64,000 nucleotides of DNA, taken from positions 24,258 to 88,257 of the IMG/VR virus record IMGVR_UViG_3300045125_000073; one strand, written 5' to 3'. Shown here piece by piece: positions 1 through 9,247 of the stretch. The DNA is from a virus. Below the pieces are notes generated by a model. The model saw nothing but the letters and a program-made list of their open reading frames with translations, made no database searches and was not told where the DNA came from. The translations under genes and the position numbers were made by a program. The stretch's first letter is position 1. Each line of letters opens with the position of its first letter.

Positions 1-479
1 TCCATACAGGTCCTGGTCTACCAGTTGTAGCTATATCGTAAGCTTTATTCAGTTCATATAATATATCATTTTTATCTTTAATCATAACAGCATACTTTGT
101 CATTGTTTTTGCTGTTGATATAATATTAAATTCTTGATCACCTATTTGTCTACAACCAGTGCCCTCGGATGTTTGTGATAATGATACTTGACCGATATAA
201 AAATAATAGGAACGCTATCCAACCAAGCACCCAAAACCCCCGTGAGAGTGTTTGTTCCTCCTGGTCCTGTTGTTACAACACAAGCACCAACGTCTTGTTT
301 TAATCTTAGCATAACCTTCAGCAGCCATTGCTGCTGCTTGTTCGTAGAGAAATATACTTTAGTGTTTTTGCTTTTCCTAATGAATCTCATCAAGTGAATA
401 CAACCACCACCAGAAACAGTAAAAACATGATTTATATTTTTGATTCCAAAAACTCTACTACAATATCAGATACTTTCAT
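1..479 (-). CDS. Thiamine pyrophosphate-binding protein (acetolactate synthase-like/YerE-like), N-terminal part; runs off the window; frameshifted
   Basis: Start MKVSDIVVEFLESKNINHVFTVSGGGCIHL at 479 and GACVVTTGPGGTNTLTGVLGAWLDSVPIIFIS match the TPP-enzyme N-terminal (pyrimidine-binding) domain. Confidence 0.85.
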
Positions 480-863
480 GGGTAAACTTTTTTAAATCAC
501 TTAGTGCTTGATTCCAATTTTGGAATTGAATTGCTTTATCATCAATATAACAAATACATCTAGGTTTTTCTGCTGTTATATCTTTTATGTATTCATTTAA
601 TTCATACTTTTTAACCATTCCCATATCAATTCTGGTCCTGTTTTTCCGTTTATAAGTGGTCTATCTTTCTTTGCTTTAGCTGTGTAGATTACTATATGAT
701 ACTTTTTTGAAAGTTTTTTTATCGCGTCAATAGAACCCTCAATAGGACTTCCATATATTGTCCCATCGTGATAACCTAACTCAAAACTATGGATAACTCC
801 ATCAAAATCTATAGCTATAGTTTTTGCTTCTTCTTCTTCAATTTTTTTCTTGTATTCATTCAT
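466..863 (-). CDS. HAD-superfamily hydrolase (cap-less); frameshifted near 600
   Basis: Motif I IAIDFDGVIH; C-terminal KPRCICYIDDKAIQF in another frame. Confidence 0.75.
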
Positions 864-1657
864 GGTTTATGGATTGATTTATTCTATCTTGAATCATTTG
901 GATGCGTTTAATATCTTGAGACGCAAGAGTAGTATAATATTCGTGTTTACACTTAAGCCATTCATATTCAAACATTTGGCCTTTTGAAAGGGCTCTTGGT
1001 AGATTTTTTAAAGCAACTGATGGATCGTATATTGCATAACGTGTTTCAAATTTATCAAGTAAACCTTCAGAGTGAAGTTTCTTTAAGAAAGAAAGAGAAT
1101 CTGTAGAAACAGCTCCACCCAAACACAATTTTAATCCTTTTTCTTTAACTTTAACAAATACTTTACGCACTAATGAATATATCTCATCGCTATTGACATA
1201 TGTTCTATCTTTCTCCATAGAAGAAACCAGATCTACTCGACCAACAGTAACTCCATATAAACTGTCAACTTCAACTATGTTCAGCATCTTTTCGATGTTG
1301 TTTACTGCGGTTATTGTTTCTACATTTATATTTAAGTGTATAGAACTTAAAGAATCATTTGGAATATGTGTTTTGGCTGATTGGATAAACTTTTAAGACC
1401 AAATTCAGACTCTACCATAGGAGCCACTAATCCCTTGACTCCTATGATCAAAGAATCTTTATAATATCTCTAATCGCCTCTGGACCACCTATTTTAAGTG
1501 TCAGTTTAGTTTTAGCTTGATTACAAATTTCTTTTAGGCGAACAGTTTCATTAAATAATGCTCCCTCATCTTCAAAAGAAGTTTTAATACCAATAAGACC
1601 TTCATTTTCAATGAGATCAGTTAAAATTTTAACGCATTTAAATTCTCTGGTGTTCAT
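856..1657 (-). CDS. HpcH/HpaI aldolase / citrate-lyase-like protein; frameshifted
   Basis: ORFs 1448-1657 (GIKTSFEDEG...LKIGGPEAIRD) and 856-1287 (GVTVGRVDLVSSM...LCLGGAVS) join into one ~265-aa protein; family recognised from motifs only. Confidence 0.6.
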
Positions 1658-1660
1658 GGT

Positions 1661-2325
1661 TTATTTTTTTGTTATTATTGCTGTAGCATATGCATTTTGA
1701 ACATCGACATAGATTTCTATGCCAGATATATTATTTTCTAAGTACTCTTTTCATCGAGGCAACAGGTGCTCGGATTCTATTTTACCTGTTTCTTTAAGTT
1801 TGTATATTAAATTATAAGTCTCATCGTTTCTAATACAACAAACTGGCTGATTTGGAATCGACATATCTTCTAAAATATAATAACCACCAGATTTAACATA
1901 TTTAAAAAGCTGGCCCAAAGATATGATTTGATGGTGATGTTCATGTGAACCGTCTTCTAATATAAAATCAAATTGTGTATTACCAAATGTTTTATACATA
2001 TTTTGTAAATCTATTCTATTACCTTGGTCGCCTTGAAAGAATTTTATCCTTTCATTGTTTTTTATAACAGGATGAGTTGACATATCTTTGATATCAAACG
2101 TGTAAATATACGCTGCATCAAAGTAATCTTTCCACATATTTACAGACTGACCACCATCAGAATATTCCATTTTTATTCCAATTTCTAACATTCGAATGGG
2201 TTCTTTCTCCATTTTGTTAAAAGTACATCATAAATTGGAGCATATCCGTGACGAGATGCGTTTGGAAATTCAGTTCCTTTATCCGTACCGTATAAATTTG
2301 CTAATTGATCTAATGTTTGTTTCAT
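1661..2325 (-). CDS. Class I SAM-dependent O-methyltransferase (MycE/ElmMI-like sugar methyltransferase); frameshifted
   Basis: N-terminal LYGTDKG...HGYAPIYD, motif I IRMLEIGI, and FDFILEDGSH. Confidence 0.75.
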
Positions 2326-2332
2326 TGTTATT

Positions 2333-3280
2333 TTACCATATAAAATTATTTTTATAATACTCTACTACATCCCTTAAAGCCATCTTAAAGTTTATTTCGG
2401 GATTCCATCCTAATCTTTTAAGTTTATCATCATTCAAAGAATATCGCAAATCTTGTCCAACTCTAGAACAAGACATATCAACATAATCATTTACATCAAA
2501 AGTATCAGTATTTTTTATGATTGATATAATGTCTTTAACGGTTTGTATATTTGATTGTTCAAAGTCACCAGAAATGTTGTATATCTCATTTTTAACACCA
2601 CTCTCAATAATTTTTATTATTGCATTCGCGGTGTCTTGTGCGTGTAACCGTTCTAATTGAGTTCCATTGTTGTGTAGGGGTATTTTTCTATTTAGATTAA
2701 AATACTTACATACTTTTGGAATTAATTTTTCTGTGTATTGACCAATTCCGTAGTTGTTTGTGGGTCTAACAATAACGTATGGAACTTTATGAGTTCGTGC
2801 CCATGCTAGTATTAACATGTCTGCTGCAGCTTTAGTTGCTGCATATGGGTTTGATGGTTTTAATATATCGGCTTCAGTGTGAGCACCTTCAACAATGTCA
2901 CCATAAACTTCGTCTGTACTAAAATGTAATAGAGTAGGTACTGCTGTATTTTTGTCTATAGTTTTTTATTAACTTTAAAATATTATGAACACCGTTTATA
3001 TTGGAATAAATAAAATCATCACTATTAGCTATGGAATTACCTACATGAGTTTCAGCAGCCGTATTGATAATATAATCGCAATCATATAAAAATTTAAGGT
3101 CATTTATATCACAATGAACAAATGAAAATTTTCGTATTGATTAAATTCTTTTAATAAATCGTCATTTGCTGCGTATGTTATTTTATCTACACCTTTTACA
3201 TACCAGCCTTTTTTTAAACAAAGTCGTGTTATATAAGAGCCTATAAATCCTAAACACCCTGTTACATATACTATTTTCAT
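2333..3280 (-). CDS. rfbB: dTDP-glucose 4,6-dehydratase (RmlB/RfbB type); frameshifted
   Basis: VTGCLGFIGS Rossmann motif, AAETHVGNSI, HFSTDEVYG, PSNPYAATKAAAD, RPTNNYGIGQYTEKLIP. Confidence 0.88.
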
Positions 3281-3281
3281 T

Positions 3282-4013
3282 TTATCTGCTCCAAAAAGTT
3301 GGTTCTCCTATAATTCTGGGTGCACAGTATTTATTTCTCAGAAGTTTGTGTTTGTATTTTATTATCAAGTTGTAATATTGTTTTAGTGCACATTCGTAGA
3401 TATATGCATGAAAATTATCAGTATAATTATACCAATAATCGTCTATTGCATTGTAAAAATTTGTTTTAGTTTCTAGCTGTTCTTCTGATCCAGCAGTCCA
3501 TATATCAAAAATATACGGATATTTCCCGTCGTATGCTGTTTTGGGTATCAATAAATTTGATGAATTTAATTCATTTATATCTAATTTAGAAAGATAATTT
3601 ATATCTAATCTAGTAGAAAAATACTTATCATATTTTTCATATTGTCTGGCCATTTCAAAAGCCTTTAAACTACTTTCTAACATATTTTTTACACCCAAAT
3701 GAGAATTTGGTATATGTTTATTGTATCTTGACTTTAAATAGTCTGTTCCCCTATCTGTTTCCACTATTATGTGTTTTGGATTATATGATTTTTTAATCCC
3801 TTCAAAATCTATAGTTTTTGAAGACTTTTCTTCAAGGACCCCTTGTGTTTGATCTTCCCATCCATTCCAGTGTGAACCGCTTTTAGCATTAATTCTATCC
3901 CAGGTGTGTATAAAAATATCACCCGGAGCAACAGAATAAACATTATCAAAAAAATTTTGATAACATTGTTCCCATGTTCTGGAATGGCCGTGAAAGATAT
4001 AGGCTATTTTCAT
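3282..4013 (-). CDS. Hypothetical protein typical of glycan clusters (GT-like)
   Basis: Intact 243-aa ORF, MKIAYIFHGHSRT...DIFIHTWD...STRLD; context within the sugar cluster. Confidence 0.55.
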   Translation of the reverse strand: MKIAYIFHGHSRTWEQCYQNFFDNVYSVAPGDIFIHTWDRINAKSGSHWNGWEDQTQGVLEEKSSKTIDFEGIKKSYNPKHIIVETDRGTDYLKSRYNKHIPNSHLGVKNMLESSLKAFEMARQYEKYDKYFSTRLDINYLSKLDINELNSSNLLIPKTAYDGKYPYIFDIWTAGSEEQLETKTNFYNAIDDYWYNYTDNFHAYIYECALKQYYNLIIKYKHKLLRNKYCAPRIIGEPTFWSR

Positions 4014-4883
4014 TAAGTATTCTCATAATATCACTATTTTTATAAAAGTCAACTAATTTATGTATAATAGTTTCAACAGAAAATTTATTTGTATAACCAT
4101 AAGACTTAACTTTTTTATATCCAAATAAGAATGTCTAACCTGGACTATATTGTGAAATTGTGTTGGTTGGATGTCTATTATCTTAGAACTAGAGCCCGAA
4201 TAATCTATGGCCTTTTGTATGAGATCTCCAAACATGAACGGCTCACCACTGCCTATATTAATGATCTCATTTACTGGAGCATGATCTATACAGTGTTTTA
4301 TTGCAGTACATACATCATCAACGTAAATATAATCTCTTAAAACTTTACCACCATAATAAAGTTCTACATCTTTATTTTCAGTTATTTGTTTTATAAGATA
4401 TTGTAGAGCATTTTTCTTTTTAGAGATTTTTAGATCACCTTCTCCCAATACATTAGCTAGTCTAAAAATTCTATATTTTATATTGAATGTTTGGCAAAAA
4501 GATATCAGTAATTGCTCTGCACAATATTTGGTTATAGAATAAAATCCTGTAGGATTGCATTTAGAATAGTCTTCTCTAAATGGAATTTCATTATTTTGGC
4601 CGTACACAAACCAAGAGCTAACAAAATTAAAAACTATATCTTCATTTTTAGGAATGTTTTCTAAAACATTCATTAGCACTTTTAAATTGGTGTCTATGTC
4701 TATATGTAAATTTTGATGGATATTATAATTATCAACTGTACTTATTAAGTACAAAATATTATTAGTTTTTGGTTTATAATCTGTTTTATCTAACTTTATT
4801 ATTTGGTCGGAGTATAAATTACAAAATTTAGATCCTATAAATCCAGAACCACCAAACACTGATATTTTATCAATATTGCTCAT
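4010..4883 (-). CDS. NAD-dependent epimerase/dehydratase (extended SDR)
   Basis: VFGGSGFIGS, FVSSWFVYG, catalytic YSITK, RDYIYVDDV; C-terminus probably frameshifted. Confidence 0.85.
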
Positions 4884-5720
4884 ATTTTATCCCATGGTGC
4901 TTAAACCAGTTATTTACATCTAGTAAATGATACTTATAATCTTGTTTTAATTTATTATATTCCAATTCTAATAGTTCGTAGCTTATGATGGACCAATCAT
5001 CAATTAAAATCATAGGAAAATTTTTAGCATAATATGTATTCATCGCAGATGTTTCTACTACAGGAATCGCACCAAAATATAAAGATTCCCACACTCGATG
5101 TGTGTCTTTTCCGTTTCCTGGAGGACATATTATAAATTTATGAGTCTGTAAAGCTTTATAGTAATCACCAACATCATTATAAACCGTTTTAGTATTTAAT
5201 CGGTCTGATATTATTTGTTTTATTTTTGTTCTCTTCTTCTGGATTTGTTTCTATATTAAAATTAGAATAAAACAAATCCATCTCTATTATCTGTTATAGT
5301 AAATTGTTTTAGATGTTCGGTTTCAGATGCTTCAGATCTCCAAGGAGGAACTAAACCAATAGGCAACGGTGTCATTATCTCGTCTATTGTTTCTGCATTT
5401 TGTGCATACCATTTTTTTATATTTTTAGGTACTGGTGGTATATAACTAAATTTATTGTATCCACCATGAGTAGAGACCGAATGATCATTGTCCCCTGATA
5501 TTAAAATTATATCTGTTACATCAGAATTATTTAAATAATTAAAAAGGTTAGGAAGATATGTACTCCAGCAGTATATGGTACAACCATTAAAAATGTCTTT
5601 TCTTTTATTTGATTTTATATACGGAACACCATCATTACGAACAAAAACAACATCACATCTGTCAGCATAATTTCTAGCGTTTAGTGTTGTTTGTGGTATT
5701 GTTTTTACATGAGTAAACAT
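4870..5720 (-). CDS. Exostosin (GT47)-like glycosyltransferase; frameshifted
   Basis: C-terminal THKFIICPPGNGKDTHRVWESLYFGAIPVV, the exostosin-type motif; N-terminal part is ORF 5262-5720. Confidence 0.6.
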
Positions 5721-6391
5721 TTATACAGATTCTAACAGTTTTAATTTATCTTGAAATTGTTGATAAAAACCATCATGATCGCACATATTTTTTGATCTCC
5801 TCTACCATGAAATCCAAAACAATTATTTAAGTCAAAATCACATTCTGGTATTCTAGATTCTAATGAAAATCTCATAGCAACTTCAACAGGAGCAAATTTA
5901 CAACCGTGCTGTTCTAGGGCATTTTTATAACGAAGACATATTGTTCCGTCTTCATGCCCCTGTGAATCCATATAACGACAAAGATTAATTAATTTTTTAC
6001 TTCTTAAACTGAACCCACCATTACCTACACGATTAATTTGACCATAATTTTTCCATGGCGCACCGATATAATCGTATTCTAAAAATCCATCATCCCATAA
6101 ATGAGGATTTATAACAAATCCATCATCGTGAATAGTAAGACAATACTCTGTGTCAACGTACTTATACAGTTCGTGTAACATAAATTGACTATAGGTATCG
6201 TGTGTTAGTTTTGGTATTTCTTGATAAATTATATCATCCGGCACATTAACTGGTTTGATGTGTGATAATAGCATATTTTTTGCAAAATCTATATGCTTAG
6301 TACTATATTTTATAGCTTTTAATCCTATATCAGGATTTACACCATCAATACAAATTAAAGTTATATTTTTTAATTGTATCTTATTGCTCAT
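5721..6391 (-). CDS. DUF5672-family protein (putative glycosyltransferase)
   Basis: YCLTIHDDGFVINPHLWDDGFLEYDYIGAPW and VGNGGFSLRSKKL. Confidence 0.75.
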
Positions 6392-6406
6392 AGATATTTA
6401 CCAAAA

Positions 6407-7096
6407 CTATTTTTTAAGAACATCTATTCTATTTTTATTTGGTACTCCAGTAATATGAACAAGAAATGATTCTGGTGTCCACGGTTCTGGAGGATCTGGT
6501 CTACCATCCCATATACCTCTATACAATTCTTTACTAGGTATAGAATTTAAAAATCTGTGATCTAATATTTTAATTGTATCTCTACAGGGAGTTTGGAGCA
6601 TACATTATATTAAATGTAGTTTGTTCTTCTCCCCAGTGATTGTTATCAATAACATATTTTCCAACAGAAAAAATGTAGTTATTAGTTCTTTAGTTCTGTC
6701 AGTATTTTTTAAAATAAAATTTCCAGTACTAAATGAATGTTTTCCGGGCCAATCCCAAGATACAAATAAAGAGTAGCGTTCGTTTGTGATGTCTTCTATT
6801 TTATATTCTGGGTTTGTTATTAACGCATCTCCGTCAATCCACATTACTGTATCGTAATATGATAACATATCAAAACATCTTAATGCACGTAGAATTCCTA
6901 GATTTGTTGATTTAAATATGTTGTTTCTATCTTCTCCCAAAGATTTTAAACATAATAAATCATACCCATGTTTTTTTGCGTATCTTTGTTGAGACGGATA
7001 CGTTAAATCGTGTACTTCTTCATAAGTATTATCTAAATCAGAAGAAGTTTTTAAACAATCTGTAGTACCAGTTATTAGTAGAATTTTATTTTTCAT
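6407..7096 (-). CDS. GT34/MNN10-like glycosyltransferase; frameshifted
   Basis: YAKKHGYDL, DxD-type WIDGDALITN, FSTGNFILKN; C-terminal FLVHITG. Confidence 0.65.
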
Positions 7097-8412
7097 TTTT
7101 TATTTTTAAAAAAATCATCGGTTATTTGTTCGATATAATCTAGTTGCTCTCCAGTGATTACTGGACTAGTTCCTAAAAAGAAAGTATCTGTTGTTACTTT
7201 TCTAGCATTAGGATACTTTGTAATGACTTCTTGTGGGTTCATCATTCCAGAATACGCTGGTTGTAACATGATGTTGCCAGCAAAGTATGGTCTTGTTTGA
7301 ATCTTATTGCTTTCAAAATGATCCACAATATCTTTTCGTTTAAAAGGAGCTCCGTCTTTAATAGTTATTGCAAAAGCAAACCAAGCTGGTTCTGCGCCTT
7401 CTGTTGCCTTTGGAAGTATTAGATAGTTTTCATATTTAGAGAATATCTGTGTAAGGCGTGCATGATTGGCGTTACGCATCTCAATAATCTTTGGTAGCTT
7501 CTTTATTTGTGCAAGCCCCATAGCTGCTTGCGAATCTGTTGGCTTAAGATTATAACCAATTTCATCGTACACATACTTGTGATCAAAGATCTCGTCAGGC
7601 AAAGCTGGAAGCCAGTTAGAAAAACGTGTCTTACACATACCATTCTTCAAAAGATTAGCTTTTTGACCAACACAATAGCAGCCACGGCCCCATTCTCTAA
7701 AACTTCGCACTACCTTTTCTTGATGCGGAGTATTACATGCTATAAAACCACCTTCGCCCATGGTAATATGGTGAGCAGGATAAAATGAAAAACTAGCAAA
7801 TTCTCCAAAACTTCCTAATGGTTTTCCTTTATAAGTAGAACCCAAAGCATCACAACAATCTTCTAGAAGAATAAGGCCGTATTCATTAATGATTTCCATT
7901 AAACGATCCATGTTTGGAGGATTGCCTAATACGTGAGCGAAGGTAATAACTTTACAACCTTCTTTAGCTCGCTGTTCTACTTGATCTAGATTAAGATTTA
8001 GTGTATCTAGATCTATATCAACAAATACCGGCTCAAATCCCACCTGAAAAATAGGATTAATAGTTGTTGGAAATCCTGCGATAGGAGTAATTACCTTTGT
8101 GCCTTTAGGAAAATTAGTAAGGCGTTTAGATGTAAGAGCTGACATCATTAGCAGATTTGAGCTACTACCACTATTAGTCAGAATACCAAAATTTTTATCA
8201 ACTAAACGAGGAAAGATCTGTTCAAAACGGATGCCGTTTTCTCCAAGAACTAACCACCCCTCTAGTATAGTTTTAATAGATTCGGTATACTCTTCGGTAT
8301 CAAAATACGGTCCAGCGTATTGAACCCAATCTTTACCAGCCACCCATTTTTTTGCTGCGTGTTTTTCGTTTATAAATTGTTCTACTTGTTTTAAAATATT
8401 TTCCATACTCAT
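7093..8412 (-). CDS. rfbH: NDP-4-keto-6-deoxyglucose 3-dehydrase (E1, RfbH/DdhC family)
   Basis: Intact 439 aa. SFYPAHHITMGEGG has His in place of the aminotransferase Lys; WGRGCYC...C Cys cluster; DHKYVYDEIGYNLK. Confidence 0.93.
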   Translation of the reverse strand: MSMENILKQVEQFINEKHAAKKWVAGKDWVQYAGPYFDTEEYTESIKTILEGWLVLGENGIRFEQIFPRLVDKNFGILTNSGSSSNLLMMSALTSKRLTNFPKGTKVITPIAGFPTTINPIFQVGFEPVFVDIDLDTLNLNLDQVEQRAKEGCKVITFAHVLGNPPNMDRLMEIINEYGLILLEDCCDALGSTYKGKPLGSFGEFASFSFYPAHHITMGEGGFIACNTPHQEKVVRSFREWGRGCYCVGQKANLLKNGMCKTRFSNWLPALPDEIFDHKYVYDEIGYNLKPTDSQAAMGLAQIKKLPKIIEMRNANHARLTQIFSKYENYLILPKATEGAEPAWFAFAITIKDGAPFKRKDIVDHFESNKIQTRPYFAGNIMLQPAYSGMMNPQEVITKYPNARKVTTDTFFLGTSPVITGEQLDYIEQITDDFFKNKK

Positions 8413-8413
8413 A

Positions 8414-9247
8414 TTAATGAATTCCCATTCCCCAATCGTTTAGATTGGGAATATTATATTCTTTAATCATTTGTTTAATATACTGATACTTATAATTATC
8501 ACTGATATTTTGCCGACTGTAAATTAAAGGATCTACTTTTAAAGGAAAAGAAATTTCTGCGTATTCCCAATTAAAATTATTTACAGACGCATCATAAGCA
8601 GAAGCTGAAACAGTTTCTGCATTAAATTTTATTCGATTTACATAGTCTGTAATTTTCCAATAATATTGTTTTATAGCTACTGCTTTTTTATCTAACCATT
8701 GAAGATGTGCTATAAAAAGATTTGGTGCTTGAATTACCGCTTGATTTTTTGGAACTGGTAGATGTTCAGAGTGCATCTGGGCAGATTTAAAAGATATCTT
8801 ATTTTCATAAGAACCAATTCTATCTTTTAGATTATGTCTCCATGGACCGTCTATTCTTATTTTATTTTTATCTGTGTATTGGATCCATTGTGCATGGATT
8901 AATGTATCTTTGTTTTGCTCTAGAATTGACTCTAATTGATCTTTGTTTAAGTTTCCATCTAGATATTCATCCGCATCTAAACAGATAATATGACCAGAAT
9001 GTTTAAAAGCTTCATCAAATAATCTTTGTCGTATATTTGATTCTACAGATAATTCGTTTTGATTTTTATTTGTTCTAAGAACATTTAAAATATTATATTT
9101 TTCTTTATTCTCTAATAAAAATTCATAGGTTCCATCTGTGGAGTCATCATCCATAAAAATAAAACCATCAGCATATGTTTGCCAATGTGGAATCATTTCT
9201 TTTAAAAGAAATAATTCATTTTTAATTAAAGTAATTTGAATGATCAT
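8414..9247 (-). CDS. GT2-like glycosyltransferase
   Basis: Intact 277 aa; IKNELFLLKE, FMDDDSTDGT, CLDADE (GT-A DxD). Confidence 0.7.
   Translation of the reverse strand: MIIQITLIKNELFLLKEMIPHWQTYADGFIFMDDDSTDGTYEFLLENKEKYNILNVLRTNKNQNELSVESNIRQRLFDEAFKHSGHIICLDADEYLDGNLNKDQLESILEQNKDTLIHAQWIQYTDKNKIRIDGPWRHNLKDRIGSYENKISFKSAQMHSEHLPVPKNQAVIQAPNLFIAHLQWLDKKAVAIKQYYWKITDYVNRIKFNAETVSASAYDASVNNFNWEYAEISFPLKVDPLIYSRQNISDNYKYQYIKQMIKEYNIPNLNDWGMGIH

Follow-up and report, generated by a model that had tools for sequence, protein, structure and literature searches.

Which sugar might a phage build when an E1-type dehydrase, a single nucleotide-sugar dehydratase and a thiamine diphosphate (ThDP) enzyme lie together in its DNA? 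This question is raised by a gene island in the window, by which we mean the whole stretch of 64,000 nucleotides analysed here, bases 24258-88257 of the 88,811-bp IMG/VR virus record IMGVR_UViG_3300045125_000073 (CheckV completeness 46%). The record belongs to a T4-like myophage: weak nucleotide matches lead to the major capsid, prohead protease and large terminase genes of cyanomyoviruses and Methylophilales phage Melnitz, and clamp-loader and RegA genes adjoin the island in relatives. We consider it probable that a freshwater T4-like myophage carries a glycan island here, that the genes described below are its biosynthetic half, and that their product is a nucleoside diphosphate (NDP)-activated 3,6-dideoxyhexose with an acyl branch at C4. 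The known occurrence of C-branched 3,6-dideoxy sugars (yersiniose, erwiniose, caryophyllose) is confined to a few surface glycans of bacteria, and our literature search found no paper reporting the ThDP branching enzymes of such sugars in a virus.

Core enzymes of the proposed pathway

All island genes discussed here are on the minus strand. Those that carry the proposal are the following (lengths in amino acids, aa).

7093..8412, minus strand: RfbH, E1-type NDP-4-keto-6-deoxyglucose 3-dehydrase; 439 aa, a single intact open reading frame (ORF)
2336..3280, minus strand: RmlB-type NDP-glucose 4,6-dehydratase; about 317 aa in three frames
868..1657, minus strand: HpcH/HpaI-type class II pyruvate aldolase-like protein; about 265 aa, frame switches near 1392 and 1469
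469..863, minus strand: capless HAD-like phosphatase; about 132 aa, one frame switch near 600-645
1..479, minus strand: N-terminal part (about 160 codons) of a YerE-like ThDP carboligase; at least three frame switches within the window
L001:17915-18706, minus strand, outside the window: intact extended short-chain dehydrogenase/reductase (SDR) of 264 aa, PF01370, directly downstream of the ThDP gene

In the proposed pathway the RmlB-type enzyme would convert host NDP-glucose, probably dTDP-glucose and possibly UDP-glucose, into NDP-4-keto-6-deoxyglucose. RfbH, with pyridoxamine phosphate and a [2Fe-2S] cluster, would strip the 3-hydroxyl group to give NDP-4-keto-3,6-dideoxyglucose and, because no E3 appears to be encoded, would draw its electrons from host ferredoxin or flavodoxin systems. 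The aldolase would join pyruvate and an aldehyde into a 4-hydroxy-2-oxo acid, from which the mini HAD phosphatase would remove the phosphate if the aldehyde is phosphorylated. The YerE-like enzyme would then decarboxylate this keto acid and add the acyl anion to the C4 ketone, and the 264-aa SDR would reduce the branch carbonyl in the role of YerF or ErwF. A second SDR and a methyltransferase-like protein may tailor the sugar further before the neighbouring glycosyltransferases transfer it to an acceptor, be it the virion, the host envelope or another. In this scheme we infer every substrate, the carrier nucleotide, the branch length and the acceptor. What the sequences show is to which families the genes belong, which catalytic motifs they keep and in what order they stand, that their linkage is conserved across many phages and bacteria, and that natural populations have them intact.

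The assignment of RfbH is the firmest of these. Its product scores 468.8 bits on the NCBIfam model NF011936 'RfbH' (cutoff 423) and 263 bits on PF01041 (DegT/DnrJ/EryC1 fold), and aligns over its full length with E1 from Yersinia pseudotuberculosis (PDB 3BCX, 346 bits). The stretch 'SFYPAHHITMGEGG' is identical in both proteins; H214 aligns with E1 H220, which replaces the lysine that binds pyridoxal phosphate, and the H220K mutant (3BB8) differs from E1 at exactly this column. C187, C245, C247 and C260 align with C193, C251, C253 and C261 of E1, which we take to be its [2Fe-2S] ligands in the motif C-X57-C-X1-C-X7-C. The phage spacing is X57, X1, X12 versus X57, X1, X7 in E1, with a five-residue insert before the last cysteine. 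The His-for-Lys exchange and the cysteine cluster that a sequence-only reading of this DNA had recognised are thus both confirmed by alignment. By comparison, 'NDP-4-keto-6-deoxyglucose-3-dehydratase' 9WVY reaches 156 bits to the phage protein. Independent contigs covering 7180-8443 contain no indels.

One branch (SH-aLRT 100) separates 54 phage RfbH representatives from 25 bacterial RfbH proteins linked to RfbF/RfbG. Among 1,103 genomes sampled from three phyla, the RfbH of the window has no counterpart above 45% identity; given the limited bacterial RfbH sample, a cellular sister group of phage RfbH may exist. The phage-type island is also present on GVMAG-labelled IMG/VR contigs (L005/L127, L126, L128), with an RfbH in L005 that is 94% identical to that of the window. 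These contigs look like T4-like phage fragments that were binned as giant viruses.

The partner of RfbH is the only 4,6-dehydratase found. Its frames were traced by tblastn with intact orthologs from two related loci (L084 and L094, 69-89% identity); they switch near 2945 and 3130, both in A/T runs, and the motifs STDEVYG and YAATK are readable in the window. On TIGR01181, the dTDP-type model, its C-terminal half reaches 133 bits and an intact ortholog 300.2 bits (cutoff 365.1); the corresponding CDP-type scores are 21 and 67 bits. The ten best PDB matches are all dTDP-glucose 4,6-dehydratases. By sequence, the earlier claim of a sole, RmlB-type dehydratase holds.

The same reading had noted the lack of RfbF, RfbG and an E3 reductase in the window. 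This observation extends well beyond it. In the 88.8-kb record (46% complete) we found no NTP_transferase, Fer2, NAD_binding_1 or flavodoxin domain. Fer2, NAD_binding_1, flavodoxin and RmlC are missing both from the record and from three CheckV-complete relatives. Hence no E3 is found in the record or in these three relatives, and, with RmlC missing, the RmlB-type gene does not belong to rhamnose synthesis. RfbF or RfbG occurs in none of 159 phage loci, and the pairing of RfbH with an RmlB-type gene is the same in every related phage locus examined. Bacterial loci around ThDP homologues carry RfbF in 27 and RfbG (CDP-glucose 4,6-dehydratase) in 26 of 80 cases, with 412-503 bits on the equivalog models. 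One complete relative has a stand-alone RmlA-type thymidylyltransferase far from its island (L270:518-1249, TIGR01207 250 bits). Since E1 and an RmlB-type enzyme are paired without RfbF, RfbG or E3, and an RmlA-type gene occurs in a relative, a carrier other than CDP is plausible. By these sequence criteria it would be dTDP, as had been suggested, or possibly UDP. A complete 170-kb relative encodes, beside its island, a fusion of a beta-phosphoglucomutase-like HAD protein and a sugar-1-phosphate nucleotidyltransferase (L271:138-1490, G003:C1:135937-137289).

The ThDP gene would supply the branching step. It comprises about 580 codons (G000:C1:23002-24736), ends 1.25 kb beyond the window edge and contains at least five frame changes, which were traced by tblastn with the intact protein of L084. 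TPP_N, TPP_M and TPP_C (Pfam) are found on its pieces, and the stitched reading is 69% identical to the ortholog in L083. The pieces of this gene show 'YEQAAAMAAEGY' and 'EGDGSLQMN...VINNDGY', that is the catalytic Glu and the ThDP motif, and the catalytic E48 and the GDGS/NN columns are invariant in our alignment (A1). Intact orthologs of 575-581 aa are present in dozens of IMG/VR viral contigs. The closest of them matches JanthE (8RPH) with 378 bits, PpYerE (5AHK) with 280 bits and acetohydroxyacid synthase (AHAS) I of Escherichia coli with 250 bits; a profile of 25 phage orthologs gives 680, 486 and 440 bits, respectively. In the PDB ranking JanthE and PpYerE stand above every AHAS. Both are published YerE-like carboligases that accept ketones (PMC12188165, PMC12247030).

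For a phylogeny, 80 bacterial ThDP homologues with 10-kb flanks were labelled by their neighbours: RfbH is nearby in 30, and IlvH/IlvN lies immediately downstream in 10. The maximum-likelihood tree has 108 rows, which do not include YpYerE and ErwE. The stitched window protein lies in a clade of 89 rows (SH-aLRT 100, stem 0.66) together with every one of the 25 phage and 30 RfbH-linked bacterial proteins. IlvB and IlvI of E. coli and all ten IlvH/N-adjacent proteins fall outside it. The phage proteins occupy at least eight places among the bacterial ones. Beside the window gene there is no IlvH/N neighbour; its neighbours are the HAD and the SDR genes, and RfbH lies 6.6 kb away on the same strand. 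By sequence, then, the ThDP protein is YerE-like and not an acetolactate synthase. The sequence-only reading had correctly identified a ThDP gene, had called it acetolactate-synthase-like and had let it close the visible gene block. The tree that it proposed, against IlvB among others, sets the protein apart from the AHAS groups and does not show the grouping with housekeeping acetolactate synthases that it had named as a refutation; an SDR and a GT2-TPR gene follow it outside the window, where the island continues. A tblastn search of deposited phage genomes with the C-terminal piece returned only bacterial ilvB contamination of about 30% identity.

As deposited, the RmlB-type and aldolase genes are spread over three frames each and the HAD gene over two, and the ThDP gene is broken into at least five pieces. 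RfbH aside, the longest ORF over 52 kb has 304 aa, and the T4-like structural and replication genes are equally broken. Because this holds across the whole contig, sequencing error is indicated. Stop-codon reassignment was considered as a cause of the short ORFs and rejected: no single reassignment yields long ORFs, and the breaks are frame changes. Megablast of the island against INPHARED gave no near-identical phage record. Since the best viral contig has 78% DNA identity, relatives could not be used for proofreading, and metagenome contigs were used instead. Near-identical DNA is present in Logan contigs from 20 runs of 11 studies (freshwater, aquaculture, wetland, riverine). Contigs of three to four independent studies concur, against the window, on 1-2-base indels (12 of 20 listed). 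When the 12 listed indels are applied, the pieces over 4013-7096 become abutting ORFs that have the lengths of the intact orthologs (290, 282, 223 and 235 aa). Within window 3280-7100, where they were tested, the frameshifts are thus errors of the deposited sequence and not decay. Across 1503-3128 two contigs show eight gaps each, which fits a repair of the methyltransferase, aldolase and RmlB-type genes. Positions 1-1500, with the ThDP part, are sparsely covered by contigs, and the frameshifts there are presumed by extension to be errors as well. Any gene model from this indel-rich record therefore requires frame correction.

Proposed donor supply and exchangeable branch modules

The frameshifts in the RmlB-type, aldolase and ThDP genes had escaped the sequence-only reading, as had the aldolase, the mini HAD phosphatase and the SDR, and the part of the ThDP gene and the reductase beyond the window. 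The aldolase was reconstructed from three frames by tblastn with an intact ortholog (L084:7607-8401, 75-91% identity). This ortholog matches PF03328 (HpcH_HpaI) with 40.3 bits (cutoff 25); the window fragments themselves have no Pfam match. Its AlphaFold2 model (pLDDT 95.5) has HpaI, YfaU, HpcH and SbnG as top Foldseek matches, with probability 1.0 and TM-scores of 0.5-0.64. A search of the PDB with the ortholog sequence gave nothing significant (YfaU, E 0.19). We propose the aldolase as the candidate maker of the alpha-keto-acid donor. The HAD-like gene, traced with L084:8401-8796, has the motifs DFDGV, T, K and DD, and D19, D21, T61, K100, D108 and D109 are invariant in an alignment of 20 orthologs (A3). 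These orthologs have no Pfam, NCBIfam or significant PDB sequence match; the hypothetical proteins 1XPJ and 2OBB stay below significance.

The succession of aldolase, HAD, ThDP and SDR genes is the layout of the erwiniose type and not of the yersiniose type, and the branch is for this reason probably longer than two carbons. The earlier expectation of a branched deoxysugar is supported in its branching logic, and its yersiniose-like C2 branch is probably too narrow. A phosphatase in this place points to an aldehyde or keto-acid intermediate that carries a phosphate. Precedents for such partnering are KdsA with KdsC and NeuB with its phosphatases.

Relatives show how this part of the island varies. 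IMG/VR yielded 225 RfbH and 127 ThDP relatives, and clustering of 159 viral loci by their ORFs gave 120 non-redundant groups. Among 64 non-redundant ThDP-seeded viral loci, 47 have RfbH, 51 an RmlB-type gene and 48 the SDR of the 261-aa family to which the 264-aa protein belongs; an HpcH-type aldolase is present in 11, a NeuB-like synthase in 26 and one or the other type in 36. The contiguous order aldolase-HAD-ThDP is kept in at least seven non-redundant phage loci. RfbH-seeded loci with at least 9 kb of downstream sequence invariably have the RmlB-type gene (43/43), and 25 of these 43 have a YerE-like gene. In the remaining 18 its slot, flanked by the RmlB-type gene and by the 261-aa SDR, is taken by a split transketolase-like ThDP pair (Transketolase_N/TPP_C, 206 aa, and Transket_pyr, 158 aa), which by sequence is a candidate alternative branching enzyme. 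Loci with this pair include L016, L023, L044, L076 and 14 others (e.g. L023:12325-12942, L081:14918-15391).

A NeuB/PseI-like gene precedes the YerE-like gene in L054/L094, L111, L108 and about 20 more loci (e.g. L111:7710-8783, L113:10524-11153, L054:16369-17388); an adh_short reductase, a 3-dehydroquinate-synthase-like protein and an unknown 315-aa protein follow. This variant suggests a long sugar-acid donor. In some loci a PanB-like, ketopantoate-forming enzyme stands beside the YerE-like gene (L049:11316-12236). Enzymes that form alpha-keto acids thus recur in the slot beside the branching enzyme, a pattern that fits donor supply. One close relative has two further genes between the ThDP gene and the SDR (L087:10528-12506), for a methyltransferase of 383 aa and a sulfotransferase-family protein of 277 aa, which hints at a methylated or sulfated product. 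The picture is that of a stable phage core, E1 and the RmlB-type dehydratase, with exchangeable branch modules.

A wider reading, to which we would give slightly less than even weight, is that freshwater T4-like phages have an E1 lineage of their own, which was re-partnered with an RmlB-type enzyme, is run on host dTDP- or UDP-glucose and host reductants in place of CDP-glucose and E3, and makes a family of C-branched sugars with swapped branch cassettes: YerE-like with HpcH and HAD, YerE-like with NeuB-like, YerE-like with PanB-like, and split transketolase-like. If true, E1 would here be shown for the first time to act in primary glycan synthesis on a hexose not bound to CDP, and the cassettes would form a natural combinatorial system whose branched sugars perhaps decorate virions or remodel the host surface in an arms race.

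The remaining genes of the island within the window are the following.

1751..2325, minus strand: putative S-adenosylmethionine-dependent methyltransferase; about 190-226 aa, one frame switch near 2212
3282-4013, minus strand: 243-aa protein between the RmlB-type gene and the second SDR; no Pfam match, homologues in 4 of 159 related loci
4013..4883, minus strand: second extended SDR (epimerase/reductase family); 290 aa after correction of two 1-base indels
4870-5720, minus strand: unknown transferase-type protein; 282 aa after indel correction
5721-6391, minus strand: DUF5672 protein (Pfam, 76 bits); 223 aa after indel correction
6388-7096, minus strand: GT34/DUF273-like protein (Pfam Glyco_transf_34/DUF273); 235 aa after indel correction

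The match of the methyltransferase is weak (Methyltransf_24, E 0.0014), as are those of its ortholog L038:10489-11166 (FtsJ, Methyltransf_23, Methyltransf_24). The second SDR scores 110 bits on PF01370, its indels near 4024 and 4105 are seen in three independent runs, and its orthologs have a median length of 287 aa; it is possibly a tailoring ketoreductase or epimerase. Beyond the GT2-TPR gene, L001:13110-15900 (G000:C1:17409-20197) encodes large proteins with repeated modules of about 90 aa that resemble fibronectin III ('...YKIYK...'). These are possible fibre or decoration proteins and candidate sugar acceptors.

Alternative readings of the island

Several observations weigh against the branched-sugar pathway as drawn here. 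Characterised E1 enzymes use CDP-sugars and a dedicated E3, neither of which is evident in this phage. The RmlB-type ortholog stays below the dTDP equivalog cutoff, so that its nucleotide may be other than dTDP. The aldolase, putative in its catalysis, resembles solved aldolases at a TM-score of about 0.6 and 15-18% identity, and the HAD assignment, made on motifs, is putative as well. The frameshift repair in the ThDP gene was carried over from the rest of the record. Finally, the 261-aa SDR is retained in 17 of the 18 loci that have no YerE-like gene; because of this, and of its weak matches to RmlD and GDP-fucose synthase, it could be a C4 ketoreductase instead of the branch reductase.

The last point is also an argument for two pathways that share one island. 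RfbH, the RmlB-type enzyme and the SDR would then make an unbranched 3,6-dideoxyhexose of the abequose, paratose or ascarylose type, and aldolase, HAD and ThDP enzyme would serve another product, for example a substituent derived from a keto acid, or an acyloin without attachment to sugar C4. The second SDR in the window would suit such a division, as would the 17 of 64 ThDP-seeded loci in which the fetched range holds no RfbH-family gene. However, the loci without a YerE-like gene have the split transketolase-like pair at the same position, so that RfbH is practically always linked to a ThDP carboligase. In addition, all RfbH-linked bacterial homologues fall within the ThDP clade, and the branching of 4-keto-3,6-dideoxy sugars is what the only characterised members of this subclass do (PMC12247030, PMC9306805). 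We regard the shared island as unlikely. A yersiniose-type pathway, in which the same enzymes attach a classical two-carbon branch from pyruvate and the aldolase and HAD have some other purpose, seems to us quite unlikely as well. YpYerE and JanthE do take pyruvate (PMC12247030), and JanthE, the closest solved relative, is promiscuous. Against this stand the contiguity of aldolase, HAD and ThDP genes in the phage loci, the adjacency of the same trio in bacteria, and the NeuB-like (26/64) or PanB-like enzymes with which other phages fill the slot, as fits donor supply.

There is hardly any room left for an auxiliary gene of branched-chain amino-acid metabolism, i.e. an acetolactate-synthase-type ThDP enzyme, or for an island of decayed pseudogenes without function. 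The former would agree with NCBIfam, which labels the ThDP pieces 'acetolactate synthase large subunit', at only 60-97 bits versus cutoffs of 500-1000, and the latter with the many frame breaks in the record as deposited. Both are already largely refuted: the tree places the protein apart from the AHAS groups (SH-aLRT 100) and the gene has no IlvH/N neighbour; dozens of viral contigs have intact orthologs; independent contigs from several studies remove the frame breaks; and the structural genes along the whole contig are just as broken, which points to sequencing error.

A pathway to a 4-C-acyl-branched 3,6-dideoxyhexose would have several consequences. The module is common in aquatic T4-like phages, which appear to spend about ten genes on an exotic sugar; this suggests surface sugars of their own. 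With E1 consistently beside an RmlB-type enzyme and without E3, it can be tested directly whether general reductants suffice for E1 chemistry on dTDP- or UDP-sugars. For the synthesis of chiral tertiary alcohols, YerE-like enzymes are in demand as catalysts, and the phage set provides dozens of diverse intact enzymes, each of which adjoins a gene that hints at its donor substrate.

Comparison with known systems

The chemistry proposed here is that known from yersiniose and erwiniose. Four features differ: the viral host, the RmlB-type enzyme in place of RfbF/RfbG, the lack of an E3 and the donor module of HpcH-type aldolase and mini HAD phosphatase. Our literature searches found nothing relevant on phage-encoded YerE-like or RfbH pathways.

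The logic proposed here is also that of SpnQ, an E1 homologue that acts as a TDP-sugar 3-dehydrase in actinomycete antibiotic synthesis and relies on general cellular reductases without a dedicated E3. Its substrate is a 2,6-dideoxy sugar of secondary metabolism. Compared by description, a dTDP-sugar without E3 resembles our proposal, whereas phage RfbH itself is much closer to the CDP-type E1: it passes the RfbH equivalog model and has only 156 bits to 9WVY.

Yersiniose A of Y. pseudotuberculosis (DdhA-D/AscA-D with E1, E3, YerE and YerF) has the same His-for-Lys exchange and the same four Fe-S cysteines in E1, followed by a ThDP enzyme of the same subclass and a reductase. In contrast, no E3, CDP-glucose synthase or CDP-type dehydratase was found in the phage, the last cysteine spacer has 12 instead of 7 residues, and the donor-supply genes suggest a donor other than pyruvate. 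The best solved relatives of the ThDP enzyme, JanthE from Janthinobacterium sp. HH01 (8RPH/8RPI/8RPJ) and PpYerE (5AHK), have the same three-domain architecture at moderate identity. The phage enzymes have the canonical GDG in their ThDP motif, whereas JanthE has CDG (PMC12188165).

Erwiniose of Pectobacterium atrosepticum matches in layout, with ErwE (ThDP), ErwF (reductase), ErwI (aldolase) and ErwJ (PMC9306805). ErwI provides 4-hydroxy-2-oxopentanoate; ErwE refuses pyruvate, accepts 4-hydroxy-2-oxo acids and moves the longer chain onto CDP-4-keto-3,6-dideoxyglucose, after which ErwF reduces the product (PMC9306805). Shared with the phage are a 4-keto-3,6-dideoxy sugar made by E1, a YerE-like carboligase with an NAD(P)H reductase next to it, and a pyruvate aldolase that provides a longer hydroxy-keto-acid donor. 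The aldolases differ, since ErwI is of the BphI/DmpG type with an acetaldehyde dehydrogenase and the phage enzyme is of the HpcH/HpaI type with a mini HAD phosphatase. The bacterial sugar is bound to CDP via RfbF/RfbG, in contrast to the phage, which has the RmlB-type enzyme and no cytidylyltransferase found in the record.

Bacteria also possess operons of the order RfbF-RfbG-ThDP-HAD-HpcH-SDR-RfbH, as in Campylobacter concisus (L164) and Gabonibacter massiliensis (L190), for which we found no paper in the literature. Their proteins are about 42% (aldolase), about 44% (YerE-like) and 37-41% (RfbH) identical to those of the phage, and HAD and SDR genes are present as well. They differ in the first steps, with RfbF at 412 bits and CDP-glucose 4,6-dehydratase at 463-503 bits on the equivalog models where the phage has the RmlB-type enzyme, and in the phosphatase, which is a 242-aa HAD-IIA protein in the bacterial operons and a capless protein of 132 aa in the phage.

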